From IMG/VR virus record IMGVR_UViG_3300033145_001156, positions 41,623-105,622 of that record: a stretch of DNA of 64,000 nucleotides; one strand, written 5' to 3'. Numbering within the stretch: position 1 is the stretch's first letter; each line of letters opens with the position of its first letter. The notes beneath the pieces were generated by a model. The model was not told the DNA's origin. It saw nothing but the letters and a program-made list of their open reading frames with translations, and searched no databases. The position numbers and the translations under genes were made by a program. The DNA is from a virus. Positions 804 to 63,697 of this stretch are shown one piece after another.

Positions 804-1303
804 TGATCAAGGGAGAGTTCCATAACGTAGACATCAACTTGGGATACGAAAGGCTCGCGAAGGCTATCGTCGTGGGTGGGCTGCGAGGGTGGAATTACAA
901 GTTCCTCGCCTCCGACTGGTGCTTGGACTTGTGCCTGATGGTGGACTGGGACAGGGACGAGCTGGTGCGGAAGCTGAGGAAGGTTGAGAAGCGGGAAGGG
1001 CCGTGCTGGTGGAAGCTGCGGCGGACATGCGATGACTGTGAGAAGCCGATAGCCGACTGGAACAAGTCTGGATACTGCAAACTTTGCGCAAAGTCTCACA
1101 GGAAGCGTAATGACCATAACTATGGCAGGGCCAGGATGTGTCTGAAGTGTGGTGGGCGAATAACCAATAACGCGAGATTATGCAGGACGTGCGAGAACAA
1201 GAGGAGGAGAAGTGCTGGACTTGACGGTGGCGGACAGGCAGTTGGCGTTCACGAAAACTGTGTTGGGGAGGATGGAGGAGTTCGAACACAAGGACATAAT
1301 TGA
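800..1303 (+). CDS. hypothetical protein with four CxxC pairs (zinc-finger-like)
   Basis: Overlaps helicase stop; CDDC, CKLC, CLKC, CRTC. Confidence 0.55.
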   Translation: MMIKGEFHNVDINLGYERLAKAIVVGGLRGWNYKFLASDWCLDLCLMVDWDRDELVRKLRKVEKREGPCWWKLRRTCDDCEKPIADWNKSGYCKLCAKSHRKRNDHNYGRARMCLKCGGRITNNARLCRTCENKRRRSAGLDGGGQAVGVHENCVGEDGGVRTQGHN

Positions 1304-1910
1304 GGCGACCAGGGTGCAATGCGGACTCCTGTCCGATTGGAAGACTGTCGAGCGGAAGGCCGCGTTGAACATGATGATCGGCGTCTACACGCTGGATTTG
1401 TTGTGGCGGGAGCTGGGGAGCGATGACGTGTACTCGTTCTATGAGCAGGCTCCATGGTGTCCGATAGAAGAGTTCAACTACTCGTTCGAGCAGTTCATGG
1501 ACAGGGCCTTCGAGCTGGACTGGGCCACGGTGAGGAACTGGTGCAGGGTGGCGGACACGTGGCTCATCAATCCCCCCATGATTGAGTTCAAGCCGGAGGA
1601 GGTAGAGCCTTCCAAGCTCTTGCTGTTCACAGCAAAGGAGCGCAAGGGGGAGATGACGGAGGAGGACTACGAGGTGCTGGGGAGCGGGTGCTCGTGGAGG
1701 AAGATGCGGCAGCACCTCTTGGTGAGCAGGCACGGGGAGAGCCCGATGAACGACAGGGTCATCATCCTGGACGGGGGGATACTGTGGGCAAAGGACGGCA
1801 GGGGACCGAGGGTCGCGATAGGGAGTTTAGAAGTCGATGAAGAGGATGATCTTATAAGATGGGGGGTAGAGCGGATCGTTAAGGCGGCGGGTGTGAAGAT
1901 AAGGGGATGA
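1212..1910 (+). CDS. hypothetical protein
   Basis: GAGGAGG RBS before GTG 1212; 232 aa in phage-typical codon usage. Confidence 0.65.
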   Translation: MLDLTVADRQLAFTKTVLGRMEEFEHKDIIEATRVQCGLLSDWKTVERKAALNMMIGVYTLDLLWRELGSDDVYSFYEQAPWCPIEEFNYSFEQFMDRAFELDWATVRNWCRVADTWLINPPMIEFKPEEVEPSKLLLFTAKERKGEMTEEDYEVLGSGCSWRKMRQHLLVSRHGESPMNDRVIILDGGILWAKDGRGPRVAIGSLEVDEEDDLIRWGVERIVKAAGVKIRG

Positions 1911-2193
1911 GACTGGGGCCATATCTTTTGGGATAGAGCGGACGAGGCTGGTTTTCATGGCTGTCTAAGGCCGCTAGGAACTATTCTCTTTGGAAAGTAG
2001 AGAGCTTGGAGAAGTTAGTTAGGTAATAAGTGTTAGTTTACGAGAGCAGCGGGACGTAGAAGGAAGGAGATGAAATAATGTTGGAAGTGTTGGAAGTAGA
2101 GAGGTTTTTCCAGGTGGTTGGAATGTGCGTTGTGTTTGGTGGGCTGATTTGGGTTTTCGGGTCAGTCGTAGTTGATATATGGAGAGGCAAAGC

Positions 2194-2487
2194 ATGACTC
2201 AGAAAGAAAGGACGGCGGACATGGGAGAAGAGGGTGTGAATCGGAAGTCGTTGAGGTTGTATGGTTATGAGGTGGCGAGAGACTATGGCATGCGGGTTAG
2301 ATCATCATCTGATGCTGTGTATTTACACTTATGTGACATAGCCAACGACGACAAGCTATACGTGACGCGCATAACGTTGTTTAGGTTACAAGAGATCATT
2401 GCTGACGCGATGCAGCTATTCAAGCAGGCAGACGAGGTAGAAAAAGCACAAATAGCTGAACGAGAAGAGGTGAGTGTGCTAGAATAG
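2194..2487 (+). CDS. hypothetical protein
   Basis: GGAGAGG RBS before ATG 2194. Confidence 0.5.
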   Translation: MTQKERTADMGEEGVNRKSLRLYGYEVARDYGMRVRSSSDAVYLHLCDIANDDKLYVTRITLFRLQEIIADAMQLFKQADEVEKAQIAEREEVSVLE

Positions 2488-2571
2488 GTTGGTTAGGCGA
2501 ACTGGTTAATTGGTTGACATTGACGATAAGCATGAATGGACTTTGCGCAAAGCGCAAGAAGGGATTAAACC

Positions 2572-2904
2572 GTGAGGATTGAGACTAGATTTATAAACCA
2601 GCTTTTGAATCAAATACAAAAGAGTAGATTCTATGATGGAAGCTATACTTACGTAGACCCTCTCTTATTGGTTCGTCACAAGTTGGAATGCCTACGGGAT
2701 GGCCGAGAGTGTAATCCTCTTAATGATTATGATGCCAGACTGTTGTTGAGGGCCATTAGGACAAATAGGGATCACGTTATAGAACATGATCGGTCCGAAG
2801 CGATAGAAAAGCTGCTTGACAAGATGTACCAAATTTGTGTTCATGGTGAGTGGGCGCATCCTGGGGGAATCGTTGGCGATCCCCGGGCGGAGGGCGCGGG
2901 TTGA
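2572..2904 (+). CDS. hypothetical protein
   Basis: 110-aa ORF after AAGGGA; preceded by palindrome copy at 2541. Confidence 0.5.
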   Translation: MRIETRFINQLLNQIQKSRFYDGSYTYVDPLLLVRHKLECLRDGRECNPLNDYDARLLLRAIRTNRDHVIEHDRSEAIEKLLDKMYQICVHGEWAHPGGIVGDPRAEGAG

Positions 2905-2988
2905 GCCAGCATAAGTAGTGCATATGGTTCTAATCCGTTTTCTGCGAAGAGACTGGATGGAATACAGAAGAAGTTATTTGAGTAACCC

Positions 2989-3017
2989 TTGACAATTCGG
3001 GGTATTTGTATTATAAT
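2989..3017 (+). promoter_or_regulatory. sigma70-type promoter, perfect consensus
   Basis: TTGACA (2989-2994), 17 nt, TATAAT (3012-3017), followed by AAGGAGG RBS and ATG 3038. Confidence 0.85.
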
Positions 3018-3037
3018 TCAGGCAAGGAGGTGGAGAT

Positions 3038-3241
3038 ATGACTCACAAGGTGATATACAAGATGAACCTGAGGGGGGACGGGCGATTGGTGGAGTTCCTT
3101 CAGCCCTTCCTGGCCAGTTACGTCGAGGAGAAGCTGACCCTGGGCAGGGCGAGGAAGTTCAAGTCTGCGCTGGAGATCATCTTCGGAGACGCCGTGACCG
3201 TCCAGACGGCCAGCCTGCCGATCAGCATCAAGATTCTGTAA
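3038..3241 (+). CDS. small hypothetical protein
   Basis: Strong promoter and RBS directly upstream. Confidence 0.65.
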   Translation: MTHKVIYKMNLRGDGRLVEFLQPFLASYVEEKLTLGRARKFKSALEIIFGDAVTVQTASLPISIKIL

Positions 3242-3251
3242 TGCTCTTCAC

Positions 3252-3557
3252 GTGAAAAAGTGGCAGAAGAGGATCTGGCAGGAGGTCATCGACCGGGATG
3301 AGGGGTTGTGCTTATACTGCGGAAGGCAGGGATGTCAGGTCCATCATGTCACGCCACGGTTGCGCTATGGTAAAGAGGGCAAGAGGAAGGGCGGCCCATT
3401 GTGGCAGTTGAAGAACATGTGCTGTGTGTGTTTCAGGTGCAACGTGGAGGCGCACACGAGGGGGATGAGGATCAGGGCCATGGAGATTCTGCACCAGCGA
3501 TTCGAATATGACTACTCTGACGGGCCATGGGCGGAATATGGGGTGGGCGATGGATGA
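3252..3557 (+). CDS. HNH endonuclease
   Basis: RDEGLCLYCG...VHHV...NMCCVCFRCNVEAH. Confidence 0.85.
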   Translation: MKKWQKRIWQEVIDRDEGLCLYCGRQGCQVHHVTPRLRYGKEGKRKGGPLWQLKNMCCVCFRCNVEAHTRGMRIRAMEILHQRFEYDYSDGPWAEYGVGDG

Positions 3558-3741
3558 CAAGGACTTCCGGGAGATTGATGCTTATCTCATTTTCCAAAGG
3601 AAGTTAGCGGAGGAGACGGAGAATGCTGGCAAGATGGTGGCGGGGTTTTTCAACACCCTCGTTCAGCATGGCGTACCAGAACAATGGGCAGCATACATGA
3701 CCTCATTCTACTTTTGGGCACTGACGCAGAAGGGGAAATGA
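3550..3741 (+). CDS. small hypothetical protein
   Basis: Overlaps HNH stop, coupled. Confidence 0.5.
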   Translation: MDDKDFREIDAYLIFQRKLAEETENAGKMVAGFFNTLVQHGVPEQWAAYMTSFYFWALTQKGK

Positions 3742-3826
3742 GCGGAGACCGGTTCGACTTGGTTGGGGGCTTCCTGATCTTGATGCTCGCAGTCGTGGTG
3801 GTGTTGGCGATATGGGGAGGTTGCAG

Positions 3827-3892
3827 ATGAGAGAACTGCCGATCTTGCTTAATGGCGAAATGGTACGGGCGACGATGGAGGGGCGCACTTGA
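3827..3892 (+). pseudogene. orphaned original 5' end of the ASCH-like gene (MRELPILLNGEMVRATMEGRT*)
   Basis: GGGGAGG RBS; 21 codons homologous to the N-terminus of 4732..5364; its stop overlaps the -35 of the inserted element's promoter. Confidence 0.75.
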
Positions 3893-3917
3893 CAACTAGA
3901 GTAGTCTGTACTATACT
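3889..3917 (+). promoter_or_regulatory. sigma70-type promoter of the LAGLIDADG element
   Basis: TTGACA (3889-3894), 17 nt, TATACT (3912-3917); GAGGAGG RBS before ATG 3956. Confidence 0.75.
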
Positions 3918-3955
3918 ATACCTGAGAATGTTTAGTCCATGAGGAGGTATAGGGC

Positions 3956-4747
3956 ATGATTAACTGGCAGGATAAGGACTGGTCATATTTACTAGGCGTT
4001 ATACATGGCGATGGATGTATCGCCCCGCGCAGCATAAATATTGCTGTAGGATATGGTGATCGGGACTACGCAGATGTGTTAATGTCTTTATGGGAATCGT
4101 TGGGATATTTTCCCAAGTTGTACCGCCCACGCTCTGCACTTAGGGTAAGCGTTCACAGCAAAGTGTTGCGTGATGAGATAGCGCCATTCAAGCAGAAAGG
4201 TATTTGGTCATGGCCGGAAGGGTTGCAGGAGTCGGAATATCTTTCTGGGGTATTCGACTCTGATGGATGGGCATCTTTGGCGGGCGGTAGTAAGAAGATT
4301 GGTATTACACTCAAACGGAGCGGAAATCTTAAGAGACTAGCTGCCTACCTGGGTCATTTGGGAATTCCTAGAGTAACCGTTCAAAATAGAGTAACAAGCT
4401 ATAAGGGTCGCCCCTACGAAATAGAGAGAATACTCATTTGTGATTCAGCAAGGATTGTTCAGCTCGGAGCCTTGTTGAATTTTCGTAATGCTAGAAAGGC
4501 AGGCATGTTTGATGCGGTTTATCAACATGCTAAGAACTATTTGAATCGGGTCCCACTGTGGCGCGAGGTAGGATTATGGCTAATGGAAGAGTCTAGAGAT
4601 TGGCGCGAAATTGCCAAGAAGTTTAATTTGTCGAAGGCTCAAGTTGATAGTGTCCTGCAGAACTTACGCCAGAACGCAGACGTTCAGACAACGCCCCAGG
4701 TAGTAATCTTGACGAAATACGAGGTGAGGGAGTGGCGAGACAAATAA
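3956..4747 (+). mobile_element. free-standing double-motif LAGLIDADG homing endonuclease with a C-terminal HTH-like segment
   Basis: SYLLGVIHGDG and EYLSGVFDSDG motifs; lower GC than flanks; own promoter. Confidence 0.85.
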
Positions 4748-5364
4748 GAGAACTTCCCGTGTTAATGAATAGCTCTATGACTATAGCGACAATGGCCAGG
4801 ACGAAGACGATGACTCGCAGGCCGATGAGGCCGCAGCCTGAACATGATGCGCGATACACTCACCAGCCCCAGCGGTTGGTTTGGAGGGCGCGTAGTGGAT
4901 GGGAAGGCATCATGTGGGAGCCGTGGAAGCTAGGACATCCCCGGCCAGGATATGAGCACGTTGCCAAGCAGGGGCCATACGGAGTCCCCGGCGACTTCCT
5001 CTATGTGCGGGAGACGTGCCGGGCTGAGGAGCTTGAAAGCGGCCTCGACGGTATACGTTACTTGGCCGACAATGCCTTCATCGAAATCGAGGATAGTCTA
5101 GAAGCGGGCAAGCGCTGGAGCCAGATGTACCATTATCGAGGGGGCGAGGGGCTGACTATTCCCAGTATCCACATACCCAAGTGGGCCACACGGACGTGGC
5201 TGGTGAATACGGGCGTGGGAGTGGAGCGCGGGCCAGAGATCACGGAAGCCGATGCGAGGGCCGAGGGGTTCGAGAGCGCCGACGCGTTCATGATCTGGTG
5301 GGAGAATCAATACCCTGGAATGGACTGGCGGTTCGTGACTAGCTACGAGGTGATAGAGCGATGA
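4732..5364 (+). CDS. conserved phage protein, ASCH/PUA-like family
   Basis: RELPV...KTMTRR, PYGVPGDFLYVRET, PSIHIPKWA, ITEADARAEGF motifs. Confidence 0.75.
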   Translation: MARQIRELPVLMNSSMTIATMARTKTMTRRPMRPQPEHDARYTHQPQRLVWRARSGWEGIMWEPWKLGHPRPGYEHVAKQGPYGVPGDFLYVRETCRAEELESGLDGIRYLADNAFIEIEDSLEAGKRWSQMYHYRGGEGLTIPSIHIPKWATRTWLVNTGVGVERGPEITEADARAEGFESADAFMIWWENQYPGMDWRFVTSYEVIER

Positions 5365-5618
5365 GAGATGATCTTGGACGTACGACATGGCCCGACAAGG
5401 TGCGAGCAGAGCGCGACAAATACGGGGAGTTCATCGAGCGGCTGGCGCGGACGGGACTAAAATGGCGACTTGACAATCCATCTTACTGGTACTGTCCGCA
5501 CTGTGACGGCGGGGTAGTCCGTTCTGGCATAGGGCTCACCCACGAAGGCAACTGCCCCGTCGTCGAAGCTCGCCGTCTCTTGGGCTGGCCCGTGGATGAG
5601 CGGGGGAATCTGGAGTGA
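5361..5618 (+). CDS. hypothetical protein (CPHC...H-x-x-x-CP)
   Basis: Coupled ATGA overlap. Confidence 0.55.
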   Translation: MRDDLGRTTWPDKVRAERDKYGEFIERLARTGLKWRLDNPSYWYCPHCDGGVVRSGIGLTHEGNCPVVEARRLLGWPVDERGNLE

Positions 5619-5800
5619 TGATGACAATAAATGAATTCGTATGCAACGGGATCGACAGGCTCATGGCAGACGCGGCAGCGCAAGCATCTGAGTTCACGGA
5701 TGCTAGCAGTGCGTTGGCAATAGCGTTCCTCGACGCGCCGGACACGTTGCGGAGGGCCTGGCATGACTGGCTAGTGAGCGAGGAGGAGAACGATGAGTGA
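5615..5800 (+). CDS. small hypothetical protein
   Basis: Coupled overlaps at both ends. Confidence 0.45.
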   Translation: MMMTINEFVCNGIDRLMADAAAQASEFTDASSALAIAFLDAPDTLRRAWHDWLVSEEENDE

Positions 5801-6146
5801 GCGAACAGCATCTGAGATTCGGACGTATTGTGAGGCGGCAAGCGAGGGGCCGTGGCACAAAAACGGATTCCTGCCGCAACGGGCATATAACGGGGCTAGT
5901 CAATGTGTTCTCGTTGCTCCTGCACGAATCTTTGTTCGTAGCGAAGTAGCCATCGCCGAAGCAAACCTCGCATTTTGCGTCAACGCCCGCGTCGACCTGC
6001 CCCGCGTGTTGGAGGTAGCGGTGAAGCTGCGAGAGATGGCAGAGTTTGCTTGTGAGCTTGCCGACGACGATGTGGACTGGGATGCAGTGAACGTGTTGCT
6101 AGACGAAACTAGGTGGCTAGCGGAGGATACCGATGGAGATGAGTGA
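5793..6146 (+). CDS. Ead/Ea22-like protein
   Basis: EAASEGPW...ANLAFCVNARVDLPRVL pattern; GAGGAG RBS. Confidence 0.55.
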   Translation: MSERTASEIRTYCEAASEGPWHKNGFLPQRAYNGASQCVLVAPARIFVRSEVAIAEANLAFCVNARVDLPRVLEVAVKLREMAEFACELADDDVDWDAVNVLLDETRWLAEDTDGDE

Positions 6147-6411
6147 GCGGACGGCGGCACAAATCCGCGCGTACCTGGCAGAGGATATGAAGCTGCACAA
6201 CTTCCTGGCATTGGTGGAAGTGGACATGCCGCGATTGCTGGAGGCGGCAGTGAAGTTGCGGGAGGCGCGATTGAGTGATCGGCGTTGTATTATTGGCACT
6301 GCTTTCTATTCCCCGCTTTCTGAAGAGAAAATTGAGCGTCTGGCACAGCAAGATACCCTTTTGATCGAAACCGCATGGCTAGCAGAGGGGGATACTGATG
6401 GAGGCACCTGA
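6139..6411 (+). CDS. paralog of the preceding ORF
   Basis: Shared MSERTA, VD(L/M)PR.LE.AVKLRE and ET.WLAE motifs. Confidence 0.6.
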   Translation: MSERTAAQIRAYLAEDMKLHNFLALVEVDMPRLLEAAVKLREARLSDRRCIIGTAFYSPLSEEKIERLAQQDTLLIETAWLAEGDTDGGT

Positions 6412-6760
6412 GCGGATCTACTTGCAAGCGAGCATGACGGAAGAGGATGACGACTGGGATGACGAGGTTGGAGTGACTTGGTGCGTTGACAGGATCAATG
6501 ATACCGATGTTGAATATGTGCGGCGGGACGTGGCGGCGAAGCTGAGGGCGGCGCTTGCGCACTATCGTCTCACGGTTTCGGCGTATCATGGCAAATGCGC
6601 GGATCTCTTTGCCGAAACCGCATGGCTGGCAGATTCACCGGAAGCGGCAGTTTCACTAAACGCTGAAAACGGAGAGGAGAGTGAAGGCCACGTGCTGGCA
6701 GATGGTAAGCTGCATGATGGCATATCGACGACGGGACAATGGGGGGAGGGTGAAGCGTGA
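6398..6760 (+). CDS. hypothetical protein (APERIYLQ...VTWC...DVEYVRRD) sharing the ETAWLA motif
   Basis: Coupled; DNA repeat shared with preceding ORF. Confidence 0.6.
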   Translation: MEAPERIYLQASMTEEDDDWDDEVGVTWCVDRINDTDVEYVRRDVAAKLRAALAHYRLTVSAYHGKCADLFAETAWLADSPEAAVSLNAENGEESEGHVLADGKLHDGISTTGQWGEGEA

Positions 6761-7002
6761 CAGACTTGGAATCGGCAATTTGGGGATTGGTGACAGAGAA
6801 GGAACTAAAAACGATCGGTGACCAGAAGCAGTTAGTGCGAGATATCGTAGCGCTATTCCCGCCGCAAAATCTGACACATTACGCTCTTCGGGGTATCGTG
6901 GAGCAACTGCGGCTTTGCGGGTACGAATGTGAAGCTGGGCCGCTGATACTCAATACGGCATTTATAGCACTAGAGGAATTGTCTCGCCAGGGAGGAGAGT
7001 GA
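6757..7002 (+). CDS. hypothetical protein
   Basis: GGAGG RBS, GTGA overlap. Confidence 0.5.
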   Translation: MTDLESAIWGLVTEKELKTIGDQKQLVRDIVALFPPQNLTHYALRGIVEQLRLCGYECEAGPLILNTAFIALEELSRQGGE

Positions 7003-7005
7003 AAC

Positions 7006-7239
7006 GTGCACAAGTGGCTGACGGCAGAAGAGATTGAGTGTATGGAAGAGACCTTGGTAGGTTTGGAAGAGCGACTTATCGCTGCTCCCCTTTTTGCGCC
7101 TGATATGCGACGTCTCATAGCCGACCGTCGAGAGACGCGGAAACTGCTTAGGCGCGTTGTGTTCGGAGATATATTCATGGATTTGAGGCTAGCGCTAAGT
7201 GACATAAGCGATATGTTGGAGGCAACCGCCGATGACTAA
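7006..7239 (+). CDS. hypothetical protein
   Basis: GGAGGAG RBS. Confidence 0.5.
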   Translation: MHKWLTAEEIECMEETLVGLEERLIAAPLFAPDMRRLIADRRETRKLLRRVVFGDIFMDLRLALSDISDMLEATADD

Positions 7240-7498
7240 CTGGCAAAAGTGTCCTGATTGCGGTAAGGTTTGCGCGAAGCTAAGAATATGGGGTAACATC
7301 TTAGTTGGGTATTGTCTGGGCTGTGACCTCAAGTGGTGGGGTATGTTGGGTACGGAGCACCTGATAGGCAGGAAAGGCGGGAAGAAAGATGACTGACGCT
7401 GAAAAGATGCTTCTGAAGAAGCTACGCGTGCTCCTGGTGGAAATGATTCACTTGATTGACGCGCGGCTATCGATGGCAAGCGCCGGGGGGTAGCACAA

Positions 7499-7957
7499 AT
7501 GACTGATGCACAGATGCTCCAGACAATCACAACAATGCTGACAGGCCCACCTTCCAGCCTGGTGATAATCATGGCGATTGGGGCGGCGGCGCGGTTGCAT
7601 GGCCTAGACGGCTTGATGTACTACCGCCAGATATGGGCCGAATCCAGGTTCAATCCTGAAGCGGTCAACCCAAAGTCCGGCTGCCTTGGGCTGGGCCAGA
7701 TGAATCCGAAGTTCTGGCCGGAGGCGACGACCGACGTGAAGGGCAATCTGAAATTGTCGGCAGGGTACATGGAGAACTTGTTGGAGCAATATGGGGGCAA
7801 CTACGAAAAGGCACTGGCGGCATATAACTGGGGCCCTGCGAGAGTAGATTTTATGATTGACAAGTTCGCTGCTTATGGCGGCAGCTGGTATGCCGTCTTG
7901 CCCCAGGAGACGCAGAAGTACATCCGCTGGATCATGGAGGGGGATGGAGATGAGTGA
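7499..7957 (+). CDS. soluble lytic transglycosylase (SLT) domain protein
   Basis: AESRFNPEAV (catalytic Glu), GLGQM, ALAAYNWGP, ETQKYI. Confidence 0.9.
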   Translation: MTDAQMLQTITTMLTGPPSSLVIIMAIGAAARLHGLDGLMYYRQIWAESRFNPEAVNPKSGCLGLGQMNPKFWPEATTDVKGNLKLSAGYMENLLEQYGGNYEKALAAYNWGPARVDFMIDKFAAYGGSWYAVLPQETQKYIRWIMEGDGDE

Positions 7958-8297
7958 ACTGATTGATATAGTCAGGTGTCACAGGTGCAACAACAGGGCT
8001 ATCGTGGCGGGACTCTGCGCTGGGTGCGCCAGCAAGGAGATCAAGCGGCTGCGCGAATCACTACGAGGGGCGCAAGATAACGTGACGCGCCAGATCGAGG
8101 CAGTCAAGGATGCGGAGAGGGAGATCAAGCGCTTGCGGAAGATTGAGGCGGCACTGTTATTGCCTTGGCAAGTGGATGTTGACCCCAGGAAGGCCGCGAT
8201 CACCTGGTATCGGAAAATGGCTCTTTATTCTGCCGGCGGCGACGCTCTGAGGGCGCAACGGTTCGCCATGGCCGATGCGCTGGAGGGGAAACCATGA
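7950..8297 (+). CDS. hypothetical protein, zinc finger plus coiled coil
   Basis: CHRC..CAGC; EIKRLR occurs twice; coupled. Confidence 0.55.
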   Translation: MSELIDIVRCHRCNNRAIVAGLCAGCASKEIKRLRESLRGAQDNVTRQIEAVKDAEREIKRLRKIEAALLLPWQVDVDPRKAAITWYRKMALYSAGGDALRAQRFAMADALEGKP

Positions 8298-8527
8298 CAG
8301 ATGCACTTCAATTAGAGCTACTCAATGCGCGCATCAAAACACTGGAAGCCGAAAATGCGTTGCTAGGTGCTCAGCATGATGCCTATGAAGATTTCATATG
8401 GGCCGTATTAGGTATGTTCAGCGGAAAGAATATGGAGGCTTTCAAGGTATGGGTTGCTAATGTTCTCAAGTCTATTGATGCGTTGCCGAATAGCGATAAG
8501 ATTAGAGAGGCATTGGAGGCGAGATGA
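8294..8527 (+). CDS. hypothetical protein
   Basis: GGAGG RBS, ATGA overlap. Confidence 0.55.
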   Translation: MTDALQLELLNARIKTLEAENALLGAQHDAYEDFIWAVLGMFSGKNMEAFKVWVANVLKSIDALPNSDKIREALEAR

Positions 8528-8655
8528 GCAAGGGCGGGTGGTTCGTGGCGGCATGCGCACTGGGGGTCTTGGGGTACGCACTCGTGTCGTGCGGGCTGTG
8601 GACGCTGGTGCGTTGACTAGAGCGCCGTTTTGTGGTAGAATTATGGGAGGGAAGG

Positions 8656-8889
8656 ATGAAGCATTTCGTTGATGGGGATCAGGTGGCGATCACGCTGGAC
8701 GACTTTGTGGACTTGCAGCAATCGCCCGCCGTGTTCATTCCCGTGGACAGCGACGACGGGAGGGCCGTGATCGCTGGCGGGGTGGCGCAGTTGTCTGTGG
8801 GGCGGTTGAGCGAGATATTCAACGAATTGAGGACTTTGCGCGAAGCGCAGGAAGGGGATGGAAATGGGCGGGCAGGTCTTGAAGGTTAG
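8656..8889 (+). CDS. hypothetical protein
   Basis: GGGAGG RBS before ATG 8656. Confidence 0.55.
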   Translation: MKHFVDGDQVAITLDDFVDLQQSPAVFIPVDSDDGRAVIAGGVAQLSVGRLSEIFNELRTLREAQEGDGNGRAGLEG

Positions 8890-9343
8890 GCGGTACAAGG
8901 CGGGGTACGAGGTTCGGACGATACATCATCCAGAAGAAGATTGCGGCGTTCCCGGCGGGATGGAGATGAAGTCCGCCTTCACGCCGGAAGGGTACTACAT
9001 CGGCAATTCCAAGGATGCATACCGATTGATAGTCAAGCGGGGCATCAAGCCGGAACCCATGAAGCCGGATCGTCCGGAGGCTAACGGGGGTTGGGGGCGG
9101 ACGTGTTCCATCGGGTTCTGTGAGCGCGACCAGAAGTGGTTCGGCTGGTCACACAGGGCTATCTACGGGTTCGGAATTGGCGCTAAGGTAAAAGAGGGGG
9201 ACTGTGCTGCGAGTTCGGGATGGACTGACGAGTGGTTGGCAGAGTATCCTGAAGATGACCTTAGCTTACCAGTCGGATTTGTCGCTGAGTCATTAGCTGA
9301 TTGTAAACGAATGGCGATAGCGTTTGCGGAAAGTGTATCCTAG
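8858..9343 (+). CDS. conserved phage hypothetical protein (KWFGWSHRAIYGFGIG...AFAESVS)
   Basis: 161-aa ORF with RBS; Trp/Gly motif recognised from uncharacterised phage proteins. Confidence 0.65.
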   Translation: MEMGGQVLKVRRYKAGYEVRTIHHPEEDCGVPGGMEMKSAFTPEGYYIGNSKDAYRLIVKRGIKPEPMKPDRPEANGGWGRTCSIGFCERDQKWFGWSHRAIYGFGIGAKVKEGDCAASSGWTDEWLAEYPEDDLSLPVGFVAESLADCKRMAIAFAESVS

Positions 9344-9399
9344 GACTTTGCGCAAAGTCTGGGGGAGCGACGGTCGGGGTTCGCAGGCATGGGTTCGAC

Positions 9400-9651
9400 A
9401 TGGAGTGGGCGCACCACAGGCACGGGGTCCGGGTGGGTGATGAGAGGGTGTCGGAGTACGTCGAGGATGTGCTCAGGCAGGTGAAGAGGAGCGGCAACGG
9501 ATTCGTGGGGACGGGCGACTTGGCGGTGTACGGGTATCTGGCTGACGAGGCTGATCTGTATGTGCTCGTCATCCTTCACGGGGCGGAGAGCTACTGCCTG
9601 GAGATGACGGCAGAGGCGGTTCATGCGAGACTCGTGGATTCAATGCCCTGA
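9400..9651 (+). CDS. hypothetical protein
   Basis: Phage-like codon usage; start uncertain. Confidence 0.45.
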   Translation: MEWAHHRHGVRVGDERVSEYVEDVLRQVKRSGNGFVGTGDLAVYGYLADEADLYVLVILHGAESYCLEMTAEAVHARLVDSMP

Positions 9652-9733
9652 TTGCAAGGGCCTTGGCAAGATTGACGGGAAGAAGTGTCCGCGCTGCGGG
9701 GGGAAGTTCTGCGTGAAGAAAGAGGAGGATTGA

Positions 9734-10051
9734 ATGGAGACGTTCAAGTGCTACGTGTGCAAGGTGGAGGTCGAGGGAGGATACCACGTGTTCATGGAGG
9801 CCCGGAGCGCCAGGGAGAAGGACAGGTTCAGGGACGTGTGCGAGAAGTGCGTGCCGGGGGCGACCGAGTTCGACAGGTGTCTCAGTCCTGAAACGATAAA
9901 ACAGATGCATGGGGAGTATGCGTCTGGGATGGGTCCGAGGGAGATCGAGCTGAGGGAGATGTTCCGGGAGGCGATGAAGATACTCCCTGACAGGGTGAGG
10001 CACGGGATCTACGAGGCGTATTGGGAGAAGTGCGAGAGGGTGCTGGGATGA
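9734..10051 (+). CDS. hypothetical zinc-finger protein
   Basis: GAGGAGG RBS; CYVC..CEKC. Confidence 0.6.
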   Translation: METFKCYVCKVEVEGGYHVFMEARSAREKDRFRDVCEKCVPGATEFDRCLSPETIKQMHGEYASGMGPREIELREMFREAMKILPDRVRHGIYEAYWEKCERVLG

Positions 10052-10074
10052 CCTTGCAGCAAAGGGAGTGAAGC

Positions 10075-10563
10075 ATGGCAACGTTGGGTGACCTCAGGCA
10101 GGACCCTAAAAATGCAAGAAAACATTCAGCGCGCGGTTTTGGGATGCTAGTCGATACTATCCAGGAAGTCGGCGCAGCACGTTCCGGTGTGTGCGATGAG
10201 GACGGTGTGATCCTTGCGGGAAACTTGACCTGGGAAGCTATGGCTGAGGCTGGGATCAATAAGGTGAAGATCGTGGACGCTGAGGGTGATGAATGGGTGG
10301 TCGTTCGGCGTAAAGGGCTGAGTAATAAACAGAAGGTCAAGCTGGCTGTGGGTGATAACCGGATCGGCGAATTGTCTGAGTGGGATGTGGATGTATTAGA
10401 GGGGCTGGACATTGACTTGGGCGATATGTGGTTCGACTCAGAGCTTGCAGAGATAGGACTAGTCGATCCGGCTGACGTGGTATTTCCAGAATATGATGAA
10501 TCTATAGCTGGCGAGGTAGAATACATTGAATGCCCCGAATGCGGACACAAATGGCCCAAGTAG
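10075..10563 (+). CDS. ParB/Srx-like N-terminal domain protein with C-terminal zinc ribbon
   Basis: LRQDPKNARKH, ILAGN, GDNRIGELSEWD, CPECG; usual position upstream of a phage methyltransferase. Confidence 0.75.
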   Translation: MATLGDLRQDPKNARKHSARGFGMLVDTIQEVGAARSGVCDEDGVILAGNLTWEAMAEAGINKVKIVDAEGDEWVVVRRKGLSNKQKVKLAVGDNRIGELSEWDVDVLEGLDIDLGDMWFDSELAEIGLVDPADVVFPEYDESIAGEVEYIECPECGHKWPK

Positions 10564-11573
10564 ATTACATGGCTATTCTGGAGGGGGCGTGGCAGCAGCA
10601 TCTTGAAGAACGTAAGCTGGATGCCCCGACGCTGATAAGCACTTTCGCAGGTTGCGGCGGTTCCTCCCTCGGCTACAGCATGGCAGGGTTTCGGGAACTC
10701 CTGGCAGTCGAATGGGATGACAATGCAGTCGCAACGTTCAAGTTGAACTTTCCAGACGTGCCGGTCTATCATGGTGACATTCACAAGCTGACAGTTGAAA
10801 AGTGCTTGGAAATGATCGGCCTGCAACCTGGGGAGATTGACCTTCTGGATGGTTCACCGCCTTGTCAGGGATTCAGTACGGCAGGCAAGCGCAAGATGGA
10901 GGACAAGCGCAATCAACTTTATATGGAGTTTATCCGATTGCTCAGGGGGTTAAGGCCGAAGGTGTTCGTGATGGAGAATGTGAGCGGCCTGGTCAAGGGC
11001 AAGATGAAGCTGGTGTTTGCTGACATCATGCAGGAGATGAAGGCAAGCGGTTATAGGGTCAGGTGCAAGTTGCTCAATGCGATGTACTTTCAGGTTCCGC
11101 AGAGTAGACAACGACTGATATGGATCGGGGTTAGGGATGATTTGGGAATTGAAGTGAGCTTTCCGAAGGCAGAGCATAGACCGATAACAGCGGGGCAAGC
11201 TATTGTCGGGGCTGATTCTATGCCTCTTGGGAGACCGACATTAGCAGTTCGTAATGTTAGCCGACAAATACGACCAGGTGAAGGGGCGGGCAAGTATACT
11301 AAACATGGTACGGCTTTTAGCGTGATCCGTCTCGATGAACGAAGACCAGCACCAACGTTGACAAAGTCATTAGCTGGGATGAGTGGAATTATGCAGCCGA
11401 CAGGGGATAGCTATCTATCAGCAGCACAGATCAAAAGACTAGCAAGCTACCCAGGTTCATTTCGATTGATGGGTGCTGCTACTAGAAAGTGGGCATGTAT
11501 TGGTAATTCCGTTCCGCCCCTCTTCATGCGGGCAATTGCAAAACATATCAGAACAGAGATATTGAAAGCATAA
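10551..11573 (+). CDS. DNA (cytosine-5) methyltransferase
   Basis: FAGCGG (motif I), GSPPCQGFS (IV), ENV (VI), PQSRQR (VIII), IGNSVPP (X). Confidence 0.95.
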   Translation: MAQVDYMAILEGAWQQHLEERKLDAPTLISTFAGCGGSSLGYSMAGFRELLAVEWDDNAVATFKLNFPDVPVYHGDIHKLTVEKCLEMIGLQPGEIDLLDGSPPCQGFSTAGKRKMEDKRNQLYMEFIRLLRGLRPKVFVMENVSGLVKGKMKLVFADIMQEMKASGYRVRCKLLNAMYFQVPQSRQRLIWIGVRDDLGIEVSFPKAEHRPITAGQAIVGADSMPLGRPTLAVRNVSRQIRPGEGAGKYTKHGTAFSVIRLDERRPAPTLTKSLAGMSGIMQPTGDSYLSAAQIKRLASYPGSFRLMGAATRKWACIGNSVPPLFMRAIAKHIRTEILKA

Positions 11574-11742
11574 CAGAAATAGGGTTAGGACCCAAGTTAT
11601 TGGAATCATGAGGCGCAACGATGGGAGCGGTTAAGTTTATGTCAACAAATGAAACACAGGCGTGCGAGTGGTTTGCTGTACATGTCTCAGAAAGTGAGTA
11701 TGATTTGTTTGCCTTGGTAACTGTTTGCATAGTTGGTGCATA

Positions 11743-12300
11743 ATGGGCAGACGCAGAGAACTGGCAGAACTAAGGCGGGACAGGCGAAGGATAGCTACTC
11801 TATATCTCAGAGGTAAACTTCAAACGGAAATCGCTGAAGAGCTAGGGATCAATCAGTCAACTGTAAGCCGTGATTTGAAAGCGCTTCAGAAGGAATGGCT
11901 GGAAGACACCAAGATTGACTTCGACAAGGCTAAAGCCAGAGAGATTGCCAAGATTGATAACCTCGAACGCATTTACCATGTTGCTTGGATACGCAGTTGT
12001 GAGGATGCTGAGACTATTCGTAAGAAGAAGGCAGAAGTTGCTGGGGTAGAGCGTAAAGAGATCGTCACTACTGCTAAGGGGCAGGTAGGTGATCCTCGTT
12101 TTTTGACGGGGGTACAGTGGTGTATTGAGCGGCGCTGTAAAGTGTTGGGCATTGATGCGCCAACGAAGATAGCACCGACAGATCCGACAGGGGAGAAGGA
12201 ATATACAGGGCTTACGGACGAAGAGCGAAATAGACGGATATGTGCGCTCCTTGGGATCAAGCCAGAGGGTGAAGCTAGATCGGATACTTCTGACGAGTGA
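11743..12300 (+). CDS. terS: terminase small subunit (N-terminal HTH)
   Basis: LQTEIAEELGINQSTVSRDL HTH; immediately upstream of and overlapping terL. Confidence 0.75.
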   Translation: MGRRRELAELRRDRRRIATLYLRGKLQTEIAEELGINQSTVSRDLKALQKEWLEDTKIDFDKAKAREIAKIDNLERIYHVAWIRSCEDAETIRKKKAEVAGVERKEIVTTAKGQVGDPRFLTGVQWCIERRCKVLGIDAPTKIAPTDPTGEKEYTGLTDEERNRRICALLGIKPEGEARSDTSDE

Positions 12301-13795: not shown

Positions 13796-14103
13796 TGGAG
13801 CACAAGTGCGAGGCGAATGAGGGCGGTACTCACGTAGAGTTCTGGCCCAAAGATCAGAAATGGCATTTGAGTACTTGCGGAACTCTCTTATATTGTCCCT
13901 ACTGCGGCATCAAGCTGGAGAAGCCAGATGAGAAGATCGAGGTGAGCCGGAACGCGTTGAGAGAGGTTGTCGATCAGTTGTGGATAGTCCATGAAGAAGA
14001 TGCTTGGGGGGGGCATCGCACAGATGCTCCCGAGAGGGTCTTTGCTCAATGCCAACGGATCAACAAGATGCTGCGGGATGCAGAGCGCGAGGAGGGGGGA
14101 TGA
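13792..14103 (+). CDS. hypothetical zinc-finger protein
   Basis: MEHKC...YCPYCGIKLE; coupled to terL stop. Confidence 0.6.
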   Translation: MMEHKCEANEGGTHVEFWPKDQKWHLSTCGTLLYCPYCGIKLEKPDEKIEVSRNALREVVDQLWIVHEEDAWGGHRTDAPERVFAQCQRINKMLRDAEREEGG

Positions 14104-14426
14104 TGGAGCACGAGCACAGATGTACAAAGAGTGCGAGTGTCAGAATTCTATGGCGTACCGATCACTGGAGTATCGTAGATTCTACAGGCTGGCCGCGTTT
14201 CGGTATCACTCACTGCCCCTACTGCGGCGTGAAGCTGGAGCCGCCGGACGTCAAGATTGAGGTGAGCCGGAAGGCACTACTAAACTGGGCTAGTCGTTTA
14301 GACCTTGCTAATAGCGAATTACTAGGGGGCTGGCTGAGAACAGAAGTTAGTACTTTCATTGGGGCAATTGCAATTTGTATCAGGACGGCAGCACTCAATG
14401 ACTGAGCGCGAGGAGGGGGGATGATG
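14083..14426 (+). repeat. 23-bp direct repeat GAGCGCGAGGAGGGGGGATGATG flanking ORF 14100..14405
   Basis: Identical copies at 14083-14105 and 14404-14426. Confidence 0.85.
14100..14405 (+). CDS. paralog of preceding zinc-finger ORF
   Basis: MEHEHRC...HCPYCGVKLE.PD.KIEVSR.AL. Confidence 0.6.
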   Translation: MMEHEHRCTKSASVRILWRTDHWSIVDSTGWPRFGITHCPYCGVKLEPPDVKIEVSRKALLNWASRLDLANSELLGGWLRTEVSTFIGAIAICIRTAALND

Positions 14427-14663
14427 TGGACTGACGTGTACGACAAGTGGGGTACTGGGGAGCATGAGGACGTTCCGTGCAAGTTTGCGGGGCAGACGAT
14501 AATGTTGAGCAGGGAGAAATGCGAAGCCGGGCTGGGTGACTTGGTGAAGGAGTACGTTCGCATCCTGCGCACCCCGTGGTGGCGGAGGACGTTCGGCTGG
14601 GGGTTCGCGGAGAAGTTTCTGCGGAAGCGCCTGAACGTCTCCATCCTTGAATGGCATAAGTAG
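14421..14663 (+). CDS. hypothetical protein
   Basis: RBS within the repeat. Confidence 0.55.
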   Translation: MMWTDVYDKWGTGEHEDVPCKFAGQTIMLSREKCEAGLGDLVKEYVRILRTPWWRRTFGWGFAEKFLRKRLNVSILEWHK

Positions 14664-14691
14664 GATTTTGCGTAAAGTTCAGGAGGAAGCG

Positions 14692-16046: not shown

Positions 16047-16102
16047 CGATGGTTGGTCGTCCCACGGGACATAGCCATCAGGCTGGGAAGAGGAGGGTGA
16101 GG

Positions 16103-60818: not shown

Positions 60819-61986
60819 GATGATGCAGGTTTGGGACAGGAGCGGGAGCATCATCAGTGACCCGACAGGGGCTATCTCGGTTCCACTGGGGCTGCGCTGG
60901 CGCACCGGGCTACCCGGCGGATTCCTAGACTGCGAGTGGCATGTGACCCTGGGGATGCTGAGGACGTGGGCCGTCAGGGAGGCATACACCATCAAGATAT
61001 ACGACGGGCTGAGGAGCTGCTACTGGGGCAGGATAGAGGACCTGAGCCGGTTCATCAACCTGCCGAACAAGCTCAGCAACGCTTTGCGCAAAGTCACGGC
61101 CTTCGGGTTCTGGATCAACGCCGTCCAGAGGATATACACGGCTGACCACGTGAACGACGACGGGGACACCATCATAACCGCCGCGCTGCCGAGCTGCCCG
61201 CTCATATCGGCGGACACGGACGAGATAGGCGACATGGGGCTGGCGCTGGGCCTCGTCTCCTGGAGGGACGTGTACGTGGCGGACGTCGTGAGGGACACCC
61301 TGGCCTACGGGGACAATGCGACGCCGCCGGAGACGTGGGAGTTCGCGGTCTGGGACGGGGAGAGGACTTCAGACGGCCTGGCGAAGCCCTGGCTGTTCCA
61401 GAGGGACGTGAGCAACTACGACCTGCAGATACCCCTGGAGGCGATAGACGGGCAGGTGACGGTGACCTCCACGCTGTCGAGGACGGCGAACTACGTGCTG
61501 TCGAAGTACGACGAGAACTACACGGCGGCGGCGCAGGACGCCGGTTCCCAGGCCGACTACGACAGGAGGGACTACCTGTTCATGGCCCAGGGGTCGCAGG
61601 CCGTCGCAGAGAACCTCCGGGACAGGTACCTGGAGCTGCACAAGGGCCCGCAGACGCAGATGAGCGCGGTGAGGCTGAGGAGGAACCTGCTGACGCAGGC
61701 CGGGGCCCCGTACGAGATGAACAGGGTGAGGGCCGGGATGAGGGTTGTATTCCCAGAGCTGAGGAGGGCATGGGATAAGGTCTACTACATAATAGCGACG
61801 GACTACGACTCGGACTCCCATTCACTCACGCTGACGTTCGACAGTCCTGCCGAAGTGGTCGTTCCACGGGAAATTATAGAACCAGCCCCTCCGCCTGGGC
61901 CGCCGACACCCCCGTTCATCCCAGGGCCGCCAATACCATGGCGACCAACGCCGCGCCGGTGGCCGGAGGGTTTCCCATGGGTATAG
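60805..61986 (+). CDS. tail hub / baseplate protein with proline-rich C-terminus
   Basis: PGGF, YWGRIED, DAGSQADY.RR, RVRAG, TDYD; position. Confidence 0.7.
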   Translation: MQRREMMQVWDRSGSIISDPTGAISVPLGLRWRTGLPGGFLDCEWHVTLGMLRTWAVREAYTIKIYDGLRSCYWGRIEDLSRFINLPNKLSNALRKVTAFGFWINAVQRIYTADHVNDDGDTIITAALPSCPLISADTDEIGDMGLALGLVSWRDVYVADVVRDTLAYGDNATPPETWEFAVWDGERTSDGLAKPWLFQRDVSNYDLQIPLEAIDGQVTVTSTLSRTANYVLSKYDENYTAAAQDAGSQADYDRRDYLFMAQGSQAVAENLRDRYLELHKGPQTQMSAVRLRRNLLTQAGAPYEMNRVRAGMRVVFPELRRAWDKVYYIIATDYDSDSHSLTLTFDSPAEVVVPREIIEPAPPPGPPTPPFIPGPPIPWRPTPRRWPEGFPWV

Positions 61987-61994
61987 GAGGGTAG

Positions 61995-63674
61995 ATGGGA
62001 GCTCCGGAATCACATTACGACTGGCTGAGGCTGCACGACAGGCGGCTGGACAGGGGCCTCGCAGCACTGGGCGGGCCTCCGTACGGCAGCGTCGTCACCA
62101 CGGACAGGCGTTTCCACCTCTCCTTCGACGGCCACAGCTGGCCCGACCTGATGGAGCCCAGCTGGGAGCCGACCGAGACCAACGTGATATTCCTCGGCTG
62201 GGAGCACATGTGCGGGGTGCTGAGGAAGGACTCCGAGGGGCAGTACAGAGCGATATTCGACAAGGCAGTGCAGATTGCAGTGGCGGAGACCAATGCCTGC
62301 ACGAACCCGAGTGCGGAAATCAATGTCGCTGGTTGGATATTCGGCGGTAGTGGATTAACTCGTGTGGCTACCGATTACGTATACGGTGATTACTGTTTCC
62401 AGTTGCTTGCAAATTTTGTTGGCGGATATGCTCGGGATGATCTGGCCGTTGCGGGCGGCAGCACGTGGACTTTCTCACTTTGGGTGAAGACCACATCAAG
62501 TGACATACGTATCTACATGTACGACACCGTGGCTGCCGCTCCTGTTGCCGAGGATTTTGCTCAGGGCACGGGAAGATGGGAGTACATAACAATCACGGGT
62601 ACGATGGGCGCTGGCGCTGGCAATTTACGTTTTTACGTGAGCGACACGAGAGCAGCCGGATGGGACAATGTCTACTTTGATGCGGTCAATATTGTAGAAG
62701 CTGCTTATTCCACTCCCTGCATTGACGGCTCTCTCGGCGCAGGCCATGCCTGGACGGGCGCGGCCCACGCCTCCACCTCTACCCGAGCAGCCGCCGTGCT
62801 CGAATATCCCAATGACGTAGTGGCGTATCCCAGTGGGAATTGCTATGAGCAACTGACCATCGCGGGGTGGTTCATACCAGCGTGGTCAGCGGATGGGCTA
62901 ACCGGCACAACGATAGCTTGGGACATACGTGGTGCGAATAACAACAATAGAATCTTCATCAATTTTGACTCTGCGGGTAATGTTTGGAACTTGTACGTTA
63001 ATGGCGCGGTACGTTGCGCTTCAGCAGCCCAAACTTTCAATAGCTGGGAGCCACAATTCATAGTTGCCACTCTTGACTTTGACGCAGATGAATTTATGTT
63101 GTTTGTCAATGACGACACGATCATCACTGATACGACAGTCCTAACACCGCCTGTTTTTGGTGCTTCATTACTCCATATTGGGAATGCGTTCAACGATACA
63201 TTACAATTCAACGGCCTCATAGACGACTTCGTGATATACCCCCGCGTCCTCTCCGCCGACGAGATACATAGCATCTACAAGTTCGGCAACCCGCTGCTGC
63301 CGCCGACGCACGCGAATATGAGGGTGATATTCGGGCAGTGGACGAGCACGGACTTTGACGGGGATACTTTTGGCGCAACAGGGTGGACGACTTATGATTT
63401 AGTAGATGGGTTTGGGATACCGTTTGGAGCTAAGGCTATTTCAGTAACTATCTCTATGAATGACATAGGAGGCGGTATCAATCACTACTTTTCCTTACGT
63501 AAAGATGCTACAATGGCAGGAGCAGTTACAGCCGAAGCGGGCAATCAGGCTGGGGAGACAGGGTCAGAAAGCGGCCTGGTGCCGGTGGCTAATGGCAGAA
63601 CGGTTCAGTATACTGTTGGGCCGAGTGGGGATGACTGTACTCTTTACTGGAAAATAACTGGCGTGTTCTTGTAG
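61995..63674 (+). CDS. tail protein with carbohydrate-binding and LamG domains (candidate receptor-binding protein)
   Basis: TNACTNPSAE...GW, YFDAV, STSTRAA, FNGLIDDFVIYPRVLSADEI. Confidence 0.75.
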   Translation: MGAPESHYDWLRLHDRRLDRGLAALGGPPYGSVVTTDRRFHLSFDGHSWPDLMEPSWEPTETNVIFLGWEHMCGVLRKDSEGQYRAIFDKAVQIAVAETNACTNPSAEINVAGWIFGGSGLTRVATDYVYGDYCFQLLANFVGGYARDDLAVAGGSTWTFSLWVKTTSSDIRIYMYDTVAAAPVAEDFAQGTGRWEYITITGTMGAGAGNLRFYVSDTRAAGWDNVYFDAVNIVEAAYSTPCIDGSLGAGHAWTGAAHASTSTRAAAVLEYPNDVVAYPSGNCYEQLTIAGWFIPAWSADGLTGTTIAWDIRGANNNNRIFINFDSAGNVWNLYVNGAVRCASAAQTFNSWEPQFIVATLDFDADEFMLFVNDDTIITDTTVLTPPVFGASLLHIGNAFNDTLQFNGLIDDFVIYPRVLSADEIHSIYKFGNPLLPPTHANMRVIFGQWTSTDFDGDTFGATGWTTYDLVDGFGIPFGAKAISVTISMNDIGGGINHYFSLRKDATMAGAVTAEAGNQAGETGSESGLVPVANGRTVQYTVGPSGDDCTLYWKITGVFL

Positions 63675-63697
63675 ACTTTGCGCAAAGTGGAGGAACC

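Follow-up and report, generated by a model that had tools for sequence, protein, structure and literature searches.

The 12-bp palindrome CTTTGCGCAAAG, hereafter the motif, recurs throughout a 64,000-nucleotide stretch of phage DNA (the window), which comprises bases 41623–105622 of the one-contig virus record IMGVR_UViG_3300033145_001156 (105,622 bp, rated complete, with a 114-bp direct terminal repeat). We confirmed that this dispersed word is a real feature of the genome and that it extends beyond the window. It is best explained as an element that works in cis at gene junctions and is peculiar to this family of phages. Our leading reading, which we hold tentatively and to which we give somewhat less than an even chance, is that the motif would be a sequence-specific double-stranded DNA site of a dimeric phage protein, similar to an operator or a transcription roadblock, that also serves as a crossover point for cassette exchange. 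Coordinates below are those of the window unless they are marked as genome positions.

We counted ten exact copies of CTTTGCGCAAAG in the window against 0.01 expected, and none of 100 dinucleotide-preserving shuffles reached ten copies. When up to two mismatches to CTTTGCGCAAAG were allowed, 20 matches were found in the window against 1.97 expected, and variants with proper flanks lie at 8834, 14666, 17575 and 32741. An earlier note on this DNA had reported the ten perfect copies, and all of them lie where it placed them. The full-genome count that it had proposed as a check yielded 18 exact copies against 0.003 expected under an order-3 Markov background, and CTTTGCGCAAAG ranks first among the enriched 12-mers of the genome. 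Together with variants that have one or two mismatches and typical flanks, the 18 exact copies make up about 25 own copies, which we tabulated along with 17 copies from relatives (42 in total).

All 12 core positions are near-invariant across these 42 copies, and the 11 changes seen in core variants are all transitions. Conservation continues into the flanks of the 25 own copies, with A at -1 in 23, G at -2 in 22 and a purine at -3 on the left, and a pyrimidine at +12 on the right; the full unit is RGA-CTTTGCGCAAAG-Y, a spacer-free palindrome of 14–16 bp. The right flanks fall into two classes, namely, T(T/C)T..., which often continues into TTTAGGAGG, and CGCA(A/G)GAA(A)GGG. The flank bias that the earlier note described (left, GGA/AGA; right, CGC or T) is visible in the alignment as well, and two further details given there hold: positions 9344–9359 form a 16-bp palindrome, GACTTTGCGCAAAGTC, with the halves GACTTTGC|GCAAAGTC, and the copies at 2541 and 28340 have 23 bp in common. 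The 14-mer ACTTTGCGCAAAGT was found in 18 of the 42 copies. Copies that are not followed by a Shine-Dalgarno (SD) sequence tend toward a longer palindrome of 16–20 bp, examples being TAGACTTTGCGCAAAGTCTA at genome 2746 and the 16-bp palindrome at 9344–9359. Isolated half-sites occur at chance level and the enrichment is confined to full palindromes, a form that fits the dimeric reader proposed in the earlier note. The flank orientation follows that of the genes, which are all on the plus strand, in about 23 of the 25 copies; the flank consensus of the copy at 61082, and possibly of that at 1082, fits the minus strand.

The copies are placed at gene junctions in a characteristic manner. We scored their placement by an automatic rule, looking for the stop codon of an open reading frame (ORF) of at least 50 codons 5' of each copy and for an SD-preceded start codon 3' of it. 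Under this rule, ten of the 25 copies begin 1–6 nt past a stop codon, which is TAG or TGA in this phage, with TAA seen as well in relatives. Fifteen of the 25 end 10–31 nt ahead of an SD-preceded start, 14 of them within 10–24 nt, while by our own estimate from gene density about 4% of random positions would be expected to end that near to such a start. If the stop may also lie as much as 17 nt inside or beyond the copy, 18 of the 25 copies have at least one of the two associations. Many motif junctions thus consist of no more than stop, 1–6 nt, motif, 1–8 nt, SD and start. Most other gene junctions in the genome consist of an overlapping start and stop and lack the motif. Seven to ten copies have no nearby start and are located at gene ends or inside genes. 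The junction positions singled out earlier (2541, 9346, 14666, 17575, 18168 and 63676) are as the earlier note described them, and so are the readings LCAK (1082), FAQS (18593) and LRK (61082) of copies inside ORFs; its view that this is a DNA-level signal is supported as against a peptide motif, though the level may also be that of RNA. The copies in the window and the genes that they bound are as follows.

1082–1093, strand unassigned: exact copy inside an ORF-like frame (LCAK), flanks AAA/TCT; the consensus fits the minus strand better (AGA..TTT).
2541–2552, plus strand: exact copy of the CGC class (GGA-M-CGCAAGAAGGGA, M being the motif), followed after 19 nt by the GTG start of gene 2572–2904.
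8834–8845, plus strand: one-mismatch copy (CTTTGCGCGAAG), 12 nt ahead of the tad6 start; left border of the Tad6 slot.
8858–9343, plus strand: tad6, encoding a Tad6 Thoeris inhibitor (Pfam PF25188, E 2.7e-54), bounded by two copies.
9346–9357, plus strand: exact copy, 2 nt past the TAG of tad6; homology to the relatives L128/L150 resumes here.
14666–14677, plus strand: two-mismatch copy (TTTTGCGTAAAG), 2 nt past a TAG and 14 nt ahead of the ATG of gene 14692–15276.
17575–17586, plus strand: one-mismatch copy M1, 19 nt ahead of the GTG of gene B; homology to the relative L121 begins here.
17606–18165, plus strand: cassette B, which lies between M1 and M2 and is made up of a Cys-rich 149-amino-acid (aa) gene and a small ORF.
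18168–18179, plus strand: exact copy M2, 2 nt past a TGA and 12 nt ahead of the ATG of gene C; homology to L121 stops here.
18593–18604, plus strand: exact copy M3 within the 3' end of gene C (FAQS), 17 nt ahead of the ATG at 18622; exact and in the same frame in L121 and L159.
28340–28351, plus strand: exact copy about 140 nt past the portal gene, 19 nt ahead of the GTG of ORF 28371–28940.
32741–32752, plus strand: one-mismatch copy (CTTTGCGCGAAG) within the long open frame 32541–33617.
32840–32851, plus strand: exact copy, followed by TTTGGAGGAG, within the same long open frame 32541–33617.
47704–47715, plus strand: exact copy within the 3' end of gene 47145–47774, about 50 nt ahead of the start of gene 47767–48345.
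61082–61093, minus strand: exact copy inside a tail-region gene (LRK), with minus-strand flanks TGA-M-CGT.
63676–63687, plus strand: exact copy, 1 nt past the TAG of a 559-aa gene and 10 nt ahead of the ATG of gene 63698–63964.

We then compared the motif in related phages. One relative, L121, is a 9-kb viral contig found via its 89% identical portal gene, independently of the motif; it contains one exact and three one-mismatch copies, in flanks that are 65–89% identical to ours. Ten more were found by a metagenome scan with a query consisting of the motif, an SD and ATG, which returned 72 loci, ten of them homologous to this phage (L126, L128, L129, L138, L150, L154, L159, L166, L177 and L187; 65–83% nucleotide identity). 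Overall, these relatives have 65–89% nucleotide identity to this phage, were assembled independently and retain the exact word. As most of them were found through the motif, the sample is subject to an ascertainment bias, and L121, and in part L056 (see below), make up the unbiased sample. Four of the phages (L128/L150, L154, L159 and L166) have second copies, which were not used for finding the contigs, and these are all exact and all have A at -1; G stands at -2 in all but one copy of each pair. L056, a relative in the tail region, retains the reversed in-gene copy of 61082 with 23 identical nucleotides, though the protein is 45–75% identical. It was among the matches listed in a 14-mer scan of viral contigs, which were single and at chance level, and was later shown to be a true relative. 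The earlier note had asked whether the word is conserved in relatives or coincides with assembly joins; its exact occurrence in homologous contigs of at least seven other, independently assembled metagenomes answers the former and rules out an assembly artefact. From these comparisons, the word is a trait of the family that is either strongly constrained or evolving in concert. Outside these relatives, it was not found beyond scattered hits: L118 and L119, distant structural-module relatives with major capsid proteins 34–39% identical, lack the motif and anything analogous to it, the isolated phages of INPHARED have no motif unit, and the GTDB representatives (one genome for each of 185,579 species) have 42 scattered single hits, none in a relative and none with more than one copy in a genome. 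No relative could be confirmed from a scan of metagenomes with the portal protein, and viral-contig scans with DnaB, with the LexA-like protein described below and with the alignment of that protein found no relatives.

As this comparison shows, motif copies mark the borders of exchangeable single-gene units among related phages, and the suggestion in the earlier note that they are recombination points for gene cassettes is the one among its proposals that gains direct comparative support, homology to relatives breaking at the copies. On each side of a copy, 45 positions were compared with L121: 16 match to the left of M1 and 43 to its right, 42 to the left of M2 and 13 to its right. The gene order is A-M1-B-M2-C-M3-D in the window, A-M-C-M-D in L159 and A-C-M-B-M-x-D in L121; that is, cassette B is missing in L159 and lies on the opposite side of gene C in L121. 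The Tad6 slot (8834–9357) is occupied in L128/L150 by an unrelated 206-aa gene, for whose VWA-like character a language-model lead is the sole indication. In L166, two exact copies enclose a 1.35-kb insert where this genome has a single copy before its LexA-like gene, and in L121 about 1 kb with an additional copy is inserted directly past the equivalent of the 28340 site. A 33-bp unit (GATTAGGA-motif-CGCAAGAAAGGGA) is common to junctions with unrelated genes. Single-gene units between two copies include cassette B, tad6, the genes at genome 13743–14291 and 17729–17932, the L121 gene 4788–5258 and the L166 insert.

Several details of these regions are recorded here as observations in their own right. 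The L166 insert (L166:1750–3083) consists of about 650 bp of degenerate tandem repeat and a 228-aa ORF, which matches the IS110-type C-terminal domain (Transposase_20) weakly, at E 0.001 and below the cut-off. The Tad6 protein encoded at 8858–9343 is a full-length type I Thoeris inhibitor, an anti-defence gene in an uncultured phage. A 7.6-kb block from gene D to the portal gene (18986–26600) is absent from L121, where the portal gene directly follows D. The 26-codon ORF 18622–18702 and the 96-aa ORF 18699–18989 correspond to one 125-aa ORF in L121 (2653–3030), with a frameshift near an A-run, which is either a real split or a sequencing slip.

We found 13 near-consensus TTGACA-17-(TG)TATAAT promoters on the plus strand (16 pattern matches in total) against three weaker matches on the minus strand, and none of them is located at a motif copy; two of the start-less gene-end copies sit 60–67 nt upstream of such sigma-70 promoters. 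The 13 promoters probably define transcription units of the host RNA polymerase, and several have the upstream word AACCCTTGACAA in common. Canonical intrinsic terminators and terminator-like sites are not above chance in window 1–20000, the sole stretch scanned. The 13 promoters are located as follows.

Genome 2806, 6547, 8888, 13469, 18422, 22650, 23799 and 31417, plus strand: near-consensus sigma-70 promoters.
Window 2989, 3889, 8613, 33619 and 60257, plus strand: near-consensus sigma-70 promoters.

Three further genes of the genome bear on what might read or modify the motif.

Genome 33579–33869, plus strand: LexA-type winged-helix protein, 96 aa (LexA_DNA_bind, E 5e-14).
Genome 14345–15907, plus strand: fusion of ParB_N, HTH_ParB and N6_N4 methyltransferase, 520 aa (Pfam domains).
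Window 10530–11573, plus strand: C5 methyltransferase (domain match).

The earlier note saw no obvious cognate binder, which stands for the window; elsewhere, however, the genome encodes the first two of these proteins, whose folds are those of sequence-specific DNA binders, each directly behind a copy, and they are the best candidate readers. The model of the LexA-type protein superposes on the LexA N-terminal domain with a root-mean-square deviation of 1.5 Å over 66 residues, and the protein is without a cleavage or dimerisation domain. An exact copy lies directly before its gene both here and in L166, and seven homologues with 71–83% identity come from the same kind of contigs. In the fusion protein, the ParB and helix-turn-helix (HTH) region, i.e., the first 190 residues, can be aligned over its whole length with Spo0J, Noc and ParB (E 6e-13) and has a canonical HTH; a variant copy lies directly before the gene. 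A TerS-like HTH_23 protein (window 11725–12300) and an HNH-AP2 protein are less likely readers. Since Pfam scans of about 80 early-region proteins matched few families, other DNA-binding proteins may hide among the ORFs without known relatives. The genome also encodes a Sak4-type AAA_24 recombinase, DnaB, a primase and two DNA methyltransferases. In the complete genome, no match to Phage_integrase (PF00589) or Resolvase was found, the positive controls being detected, and none to a ParA-type ATPase, RHH_1 or the Y1 transposase (PF01797).

According to the reading that we tentatively favor, a dimeric phage-encoded protein would read the palindrome base by base as double-stranded DNA, and this predicted reader would act at many junctions simultaneously as an operator or elongation roadblock, like the L5 stoperators or the KorB operators. 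General short-homology recombination would cross over at the motif, as a Sak4-type recombinase could do; crossovers would fall there because the motif is the sole identical stretch (12–33 bp) among otherwise unrelated junctions, and promoterless single genes between two copies would therefore act as exchangeable cassettes. In favor of a DNA site, the would-be loop of a hairpin is as invariant as the rest of the core, whole palindromes alone are enriched, the symmetry lengthens where no SD follows, and the reversed in-gene copy at 61082 is conserved, for which a translation-start element has no obvious use. However, a number of observations weigh against this reading. The flanks are strand-asymmetric, with the left GA conserved and the symmetric right TC present in only 4–5 of the 25 copies, and nearly all copies lie in gene orientation, which suits an RNA-level element equally. 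Summed predicted RNA folds amount to -174 kcal/mol on the plus strand vs -120 kcal/mol on the minus strand, and the tight SD spacing could be functional and not a by-product of genome compaction. The phage looks non-temperate, and because no integrase, resolvase or ParA was found, a stoperator-like global silencing lacks an obvious use; the analogy to stoperators drawn in the earlier note stands as far as the layout in tiny gaps at stop and start codons is concerned, and is weakened as to prophage silencing. As to the candidate readers, the CTP-binding box II of the ParB-methyltransferase is degenerate (GGTRLEA instead of GERRxRA), the nearest outside homologue of its ParB domain (L241, 58% identity) has no dispersed palindrome in the 10 kb available, and neither candidate is tied to the motif by co-variation. 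With respect to the crossovers, motif-free breakpoints exist too, such as the borders of the block 18986–26600, some coincidence with mosaic breakpoints is expected anyway for a motif that lies at gene borders, and the evidence carries the ascertainment bias of mostly motif-found relatives.

An RNA-level junction element is a serious, if rather unlikely, rival to such a DNA site. Here the sense-strand word, with its GGA..UUU or CGCAAG flanks, would form a small hairpin between stop and SD and act by itself or via an RNA-binding protein or an RNase, whether in the translation of the downstream cistron, in coupling or uncoupling cistrons, or as a processing or stabilising mark in a polycistronic mRNA. 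Its strongest argument is the position between stop and SD, the 3' end lying 10–24 nt before the start in 14 copies, a layout comparable to that of the start-associated sequences (SAS) and extended SAS (ESAS) of Cluster K phages (PMC3203893), and it would account for the shared gene orientation and the asymmetric flanks. Flank pairs of the G-U type are far more numerous on the plus strand than on the minus strand (21 vs 3 in the T class), and the plus-strand folds are more stable; yet such a G-U bias is expected from the strong G>C skew of the plus strand. Intrinsic terminators being no more frequent than by chance in window 1–20000, the stretch scanned, other RNA signals may serve in their place. 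On the other hand, we found no covariation, flank pairing within sites (53 of 80) differing little from the 49.6 for permuted flanks (p = 0.11), and the loop letters GCGC are invariant like the stem. The T and CGC classes are predicted to fold into hairpins of two different geometries, with weak energies of -1 to -12 kcal/mol and no U-tract. Moreover, the 7 to 10 copies without a nearby start codon and the reversed in-gene copy conserved in L056 do not suit such an element, and no Rfam family matches it; a tRNA scan found nothing. Sorting the core variants into loop, wobble-compatible and disruptive positions did not separate the RNA and DNA readings, 8 of 11 being tolerated by our own count against 67% expected. 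A terminator with a U-tract, a pac/cos site and a Chi-like word are among the rejected readings.

There is a small chance that a dedicated phage system docks at the palindrome, which would be either an integrase-free, integron-like platform moving promoterless cassettes including tad6, or a parS-like loading site of a genome-modifying ParB-methyltransferase; if so, motif pairs would flag exchangeable accessory genes in uncultured phages. Taken separately, we give a smaller chance to a dedicated cassette-exchange site, which a specific recombination or nuclease system would recognise or cut, as at attC or at homing sites, and which would be conserved mainly through gene mobility. The single, co-oriented, promoterless genes between two copies that are present, absent, moved or replaced in relatives with their borders at copies would suit such a site, as would the motif units with identical 23–33-bp flanks that precede unrelated genes, the HNH-AP2 gene and the sub-threshold IS110-type match in the L166 insert. 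However, neither a tyrosine or serine recombinase nor a Y1/HUH transposase was found in the complete genome, the site is much shorter than attC, and copies also lie within conserved genes and before conserved core-type genes. Besides, general short-homology recombination gives the same pattern without a dedicated enzyme, as shown for the promoter early stem-loops (PeSLs) of T4-type phages (PMC2839356). We consider it less probable again that the motif is a loading site like parS or NBS (Noc-binding sites), at which the ParB-HTH-methyltransferase would dock to methylate or organise the phage genome. The full-length alignment of its N-terminal 190 residues, the variant copy before its gene and the architecture of the motif, which as a spacer-free 14–16-bp palindrome has the ParB-site form xTTTxxC|GxxAAAx, agree with this idea, whereas the degenerate CTP box II makes clamp-like spreading doubtful, L241 shows no dispersed palindrome beside its related ParB domain, and the fixed placement between stop and SD is left unexplained. 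A promoter element for phage-directed transcription is very improbable, although the motif is gene-oriented and just upstream of many starts. With the SD 1–8 nt past the motif, the transcript would have to start inside the motif, and only a T7-type single-subunit polymerase could achieve this; no such polymerase was found in a search whose control also went undetected, which makes this negative a weak one, and no ORF has a fitting size and place. Furthermore, the 13 consensus sigma-70 promoters are located elsewhere, and several copies lie at gene ends or within genes. The least probable of these readings is a host-derived iterated word (HIP1-like) or a target of the phage C5 methyltransferase, both of which the earlier note had raised; the motif has GCGC at its centre, and the C5 methyltransferase is encoded in the window. 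GCGC occurs 584 times in the genome, at its expected frequency, and the 12-mer is therefore not singled out as a methylation target. A host word gains no support from the single hits scattered over the GTDB representatives, and the motif is concentrated at junctions rather than spread through genes.

Other observations concern genes and words that differ from the motif. Window 11725–13795 encodes a 191-aa protein whose N-terminal part has an HTH_23/Terminase_5-like motif; next comes a 517-aa ORF without a Pfam hit; these may be the small and large terminase pair, in which case the packaging genes would lie about 13 kb upstream of the portal gene. Several 6-bp palindromes are strongly avoided genome-wide (observed vs expected: CGGCCG 0 vs 34, GGCGCC 2 vs 28, GCCGGC 5 vs 29, CTCGAG 5 vs 23), which resembles restriction-site avoidance and may hint at the restriction-modification systems of the host. 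In L241, a 24-bp unit is tandemly repeated about 15 times at 6115–6470, probably coding for an 8-residue repeat.

Dispersed, cluster-specific phage words such as stoperators, SAS/ESAS and PeSLs form a small group, half of which still awaits an explanation. The motif described here is an unusually clean case, being a perfect palindrome that is exact across phages diverged to 65–80% nucleotide identity, has a fixed place between stop and SD and shows repeated gene swaps at its copies. It offers a testable case of a regulatory word doubling as a linker in mosaic evolution, in a lineage unrelated to T4-type phages. Genes that lie between two copies, Tad6 being one, are worth considering for accessory or anti-defence roles, and engineering could use the motif sites as natural landing pads. 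Should a dedicated reader or exchange mechanism exist, viruses would have a cassette system of a new kind.

Among known systems, the sites of the ParB family, namely, parS TGTTTCACGTGAAACA, NBS ATTTCCCGGGAAAT and the KorB operator OB TTTAGCSGCTAAA, are spacer-free palindromes of 13–16 bp with a T-run, a central CG and an A-run, and NBS and OB are dispersed in tens of copies. The motif is similar in its spacer-free palindrome form, and this phage encodes a ParB-type HTH protein; however, the resemblance is one of form only, as the sequence is different, the ParB domain of this phage is part of a methyltransferase fusion and its CTP box is degenerate, and placement of copies at stop and SD is not characteristic of ParB sites. 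The attC sites of integrons are imperfect palindromes of 57–141 bp with paired core sites that mark promoterless single-gene units, with an IntI tyrosine recombinase beside the array, and the bacterial repetitive extragenic palindromes (REP elements) are intergenic hairpins after stops that are associated with RAYT/Y1 transposases. Both have in common with the motif a palindrome directly past the stop codons of co-oriented genes, but the element here is 12–20 bp long and sequence-invariant, and no IntI-type integrase or RAYT/Y1 transposase was found. The stoperators of Cluster A mycobacteriophages are asymmetric 13-mers of temperate phages, at which binding of a monomeric repressor (gp71 in L5) halts elongation (PMC9283540, PMC6550527). 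They likewise occur in two to three dozen copies genome-wide, in tiny intergenic gaps or over stop and start codons and co-oriented with transcription; in contrast, the present word is a palindrome, its reader is only a candidate, and no integrase or immunity cassette was found. In Cluster K, SAS are asymmetric 13-mers that contain the SD, lie 3–8 bp before the start and are restricted to the non-structural half of the genome, ESAS add inverted repeats, and the function of both is unknown (PMC3203893). SAS/ESAS and the motif agree in having 11–19 or more copies upstream of a subset of starts, in one orientation and conserved within the cluster, whereas the motif is palindromic, lies ahead of the SD, is linked just as often to the preceding stop, and also occurs in the virion module and inside genes. 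The PeSLs of T4-type phages combine a strong sigma-70 early promoter with a terminator stem-loop, and minicircles joined at the motif form during infection (PMC2839356, PMC4122927). As in PeSLs, a repeated regulatory motif flanks single accessory ORFs, the borders of indels and replacements lie in the motif, and no dedicated recombinase is known; the unit here differs in having no associated promoter and in measuring 14–33 bp between stop and SD. Meeting the full definition of no known family, the motif is a variant of the dispersed, cluster-specific regulatory or linker repeats of phages, and its evolutionary behavior is most like that of PeSLs.

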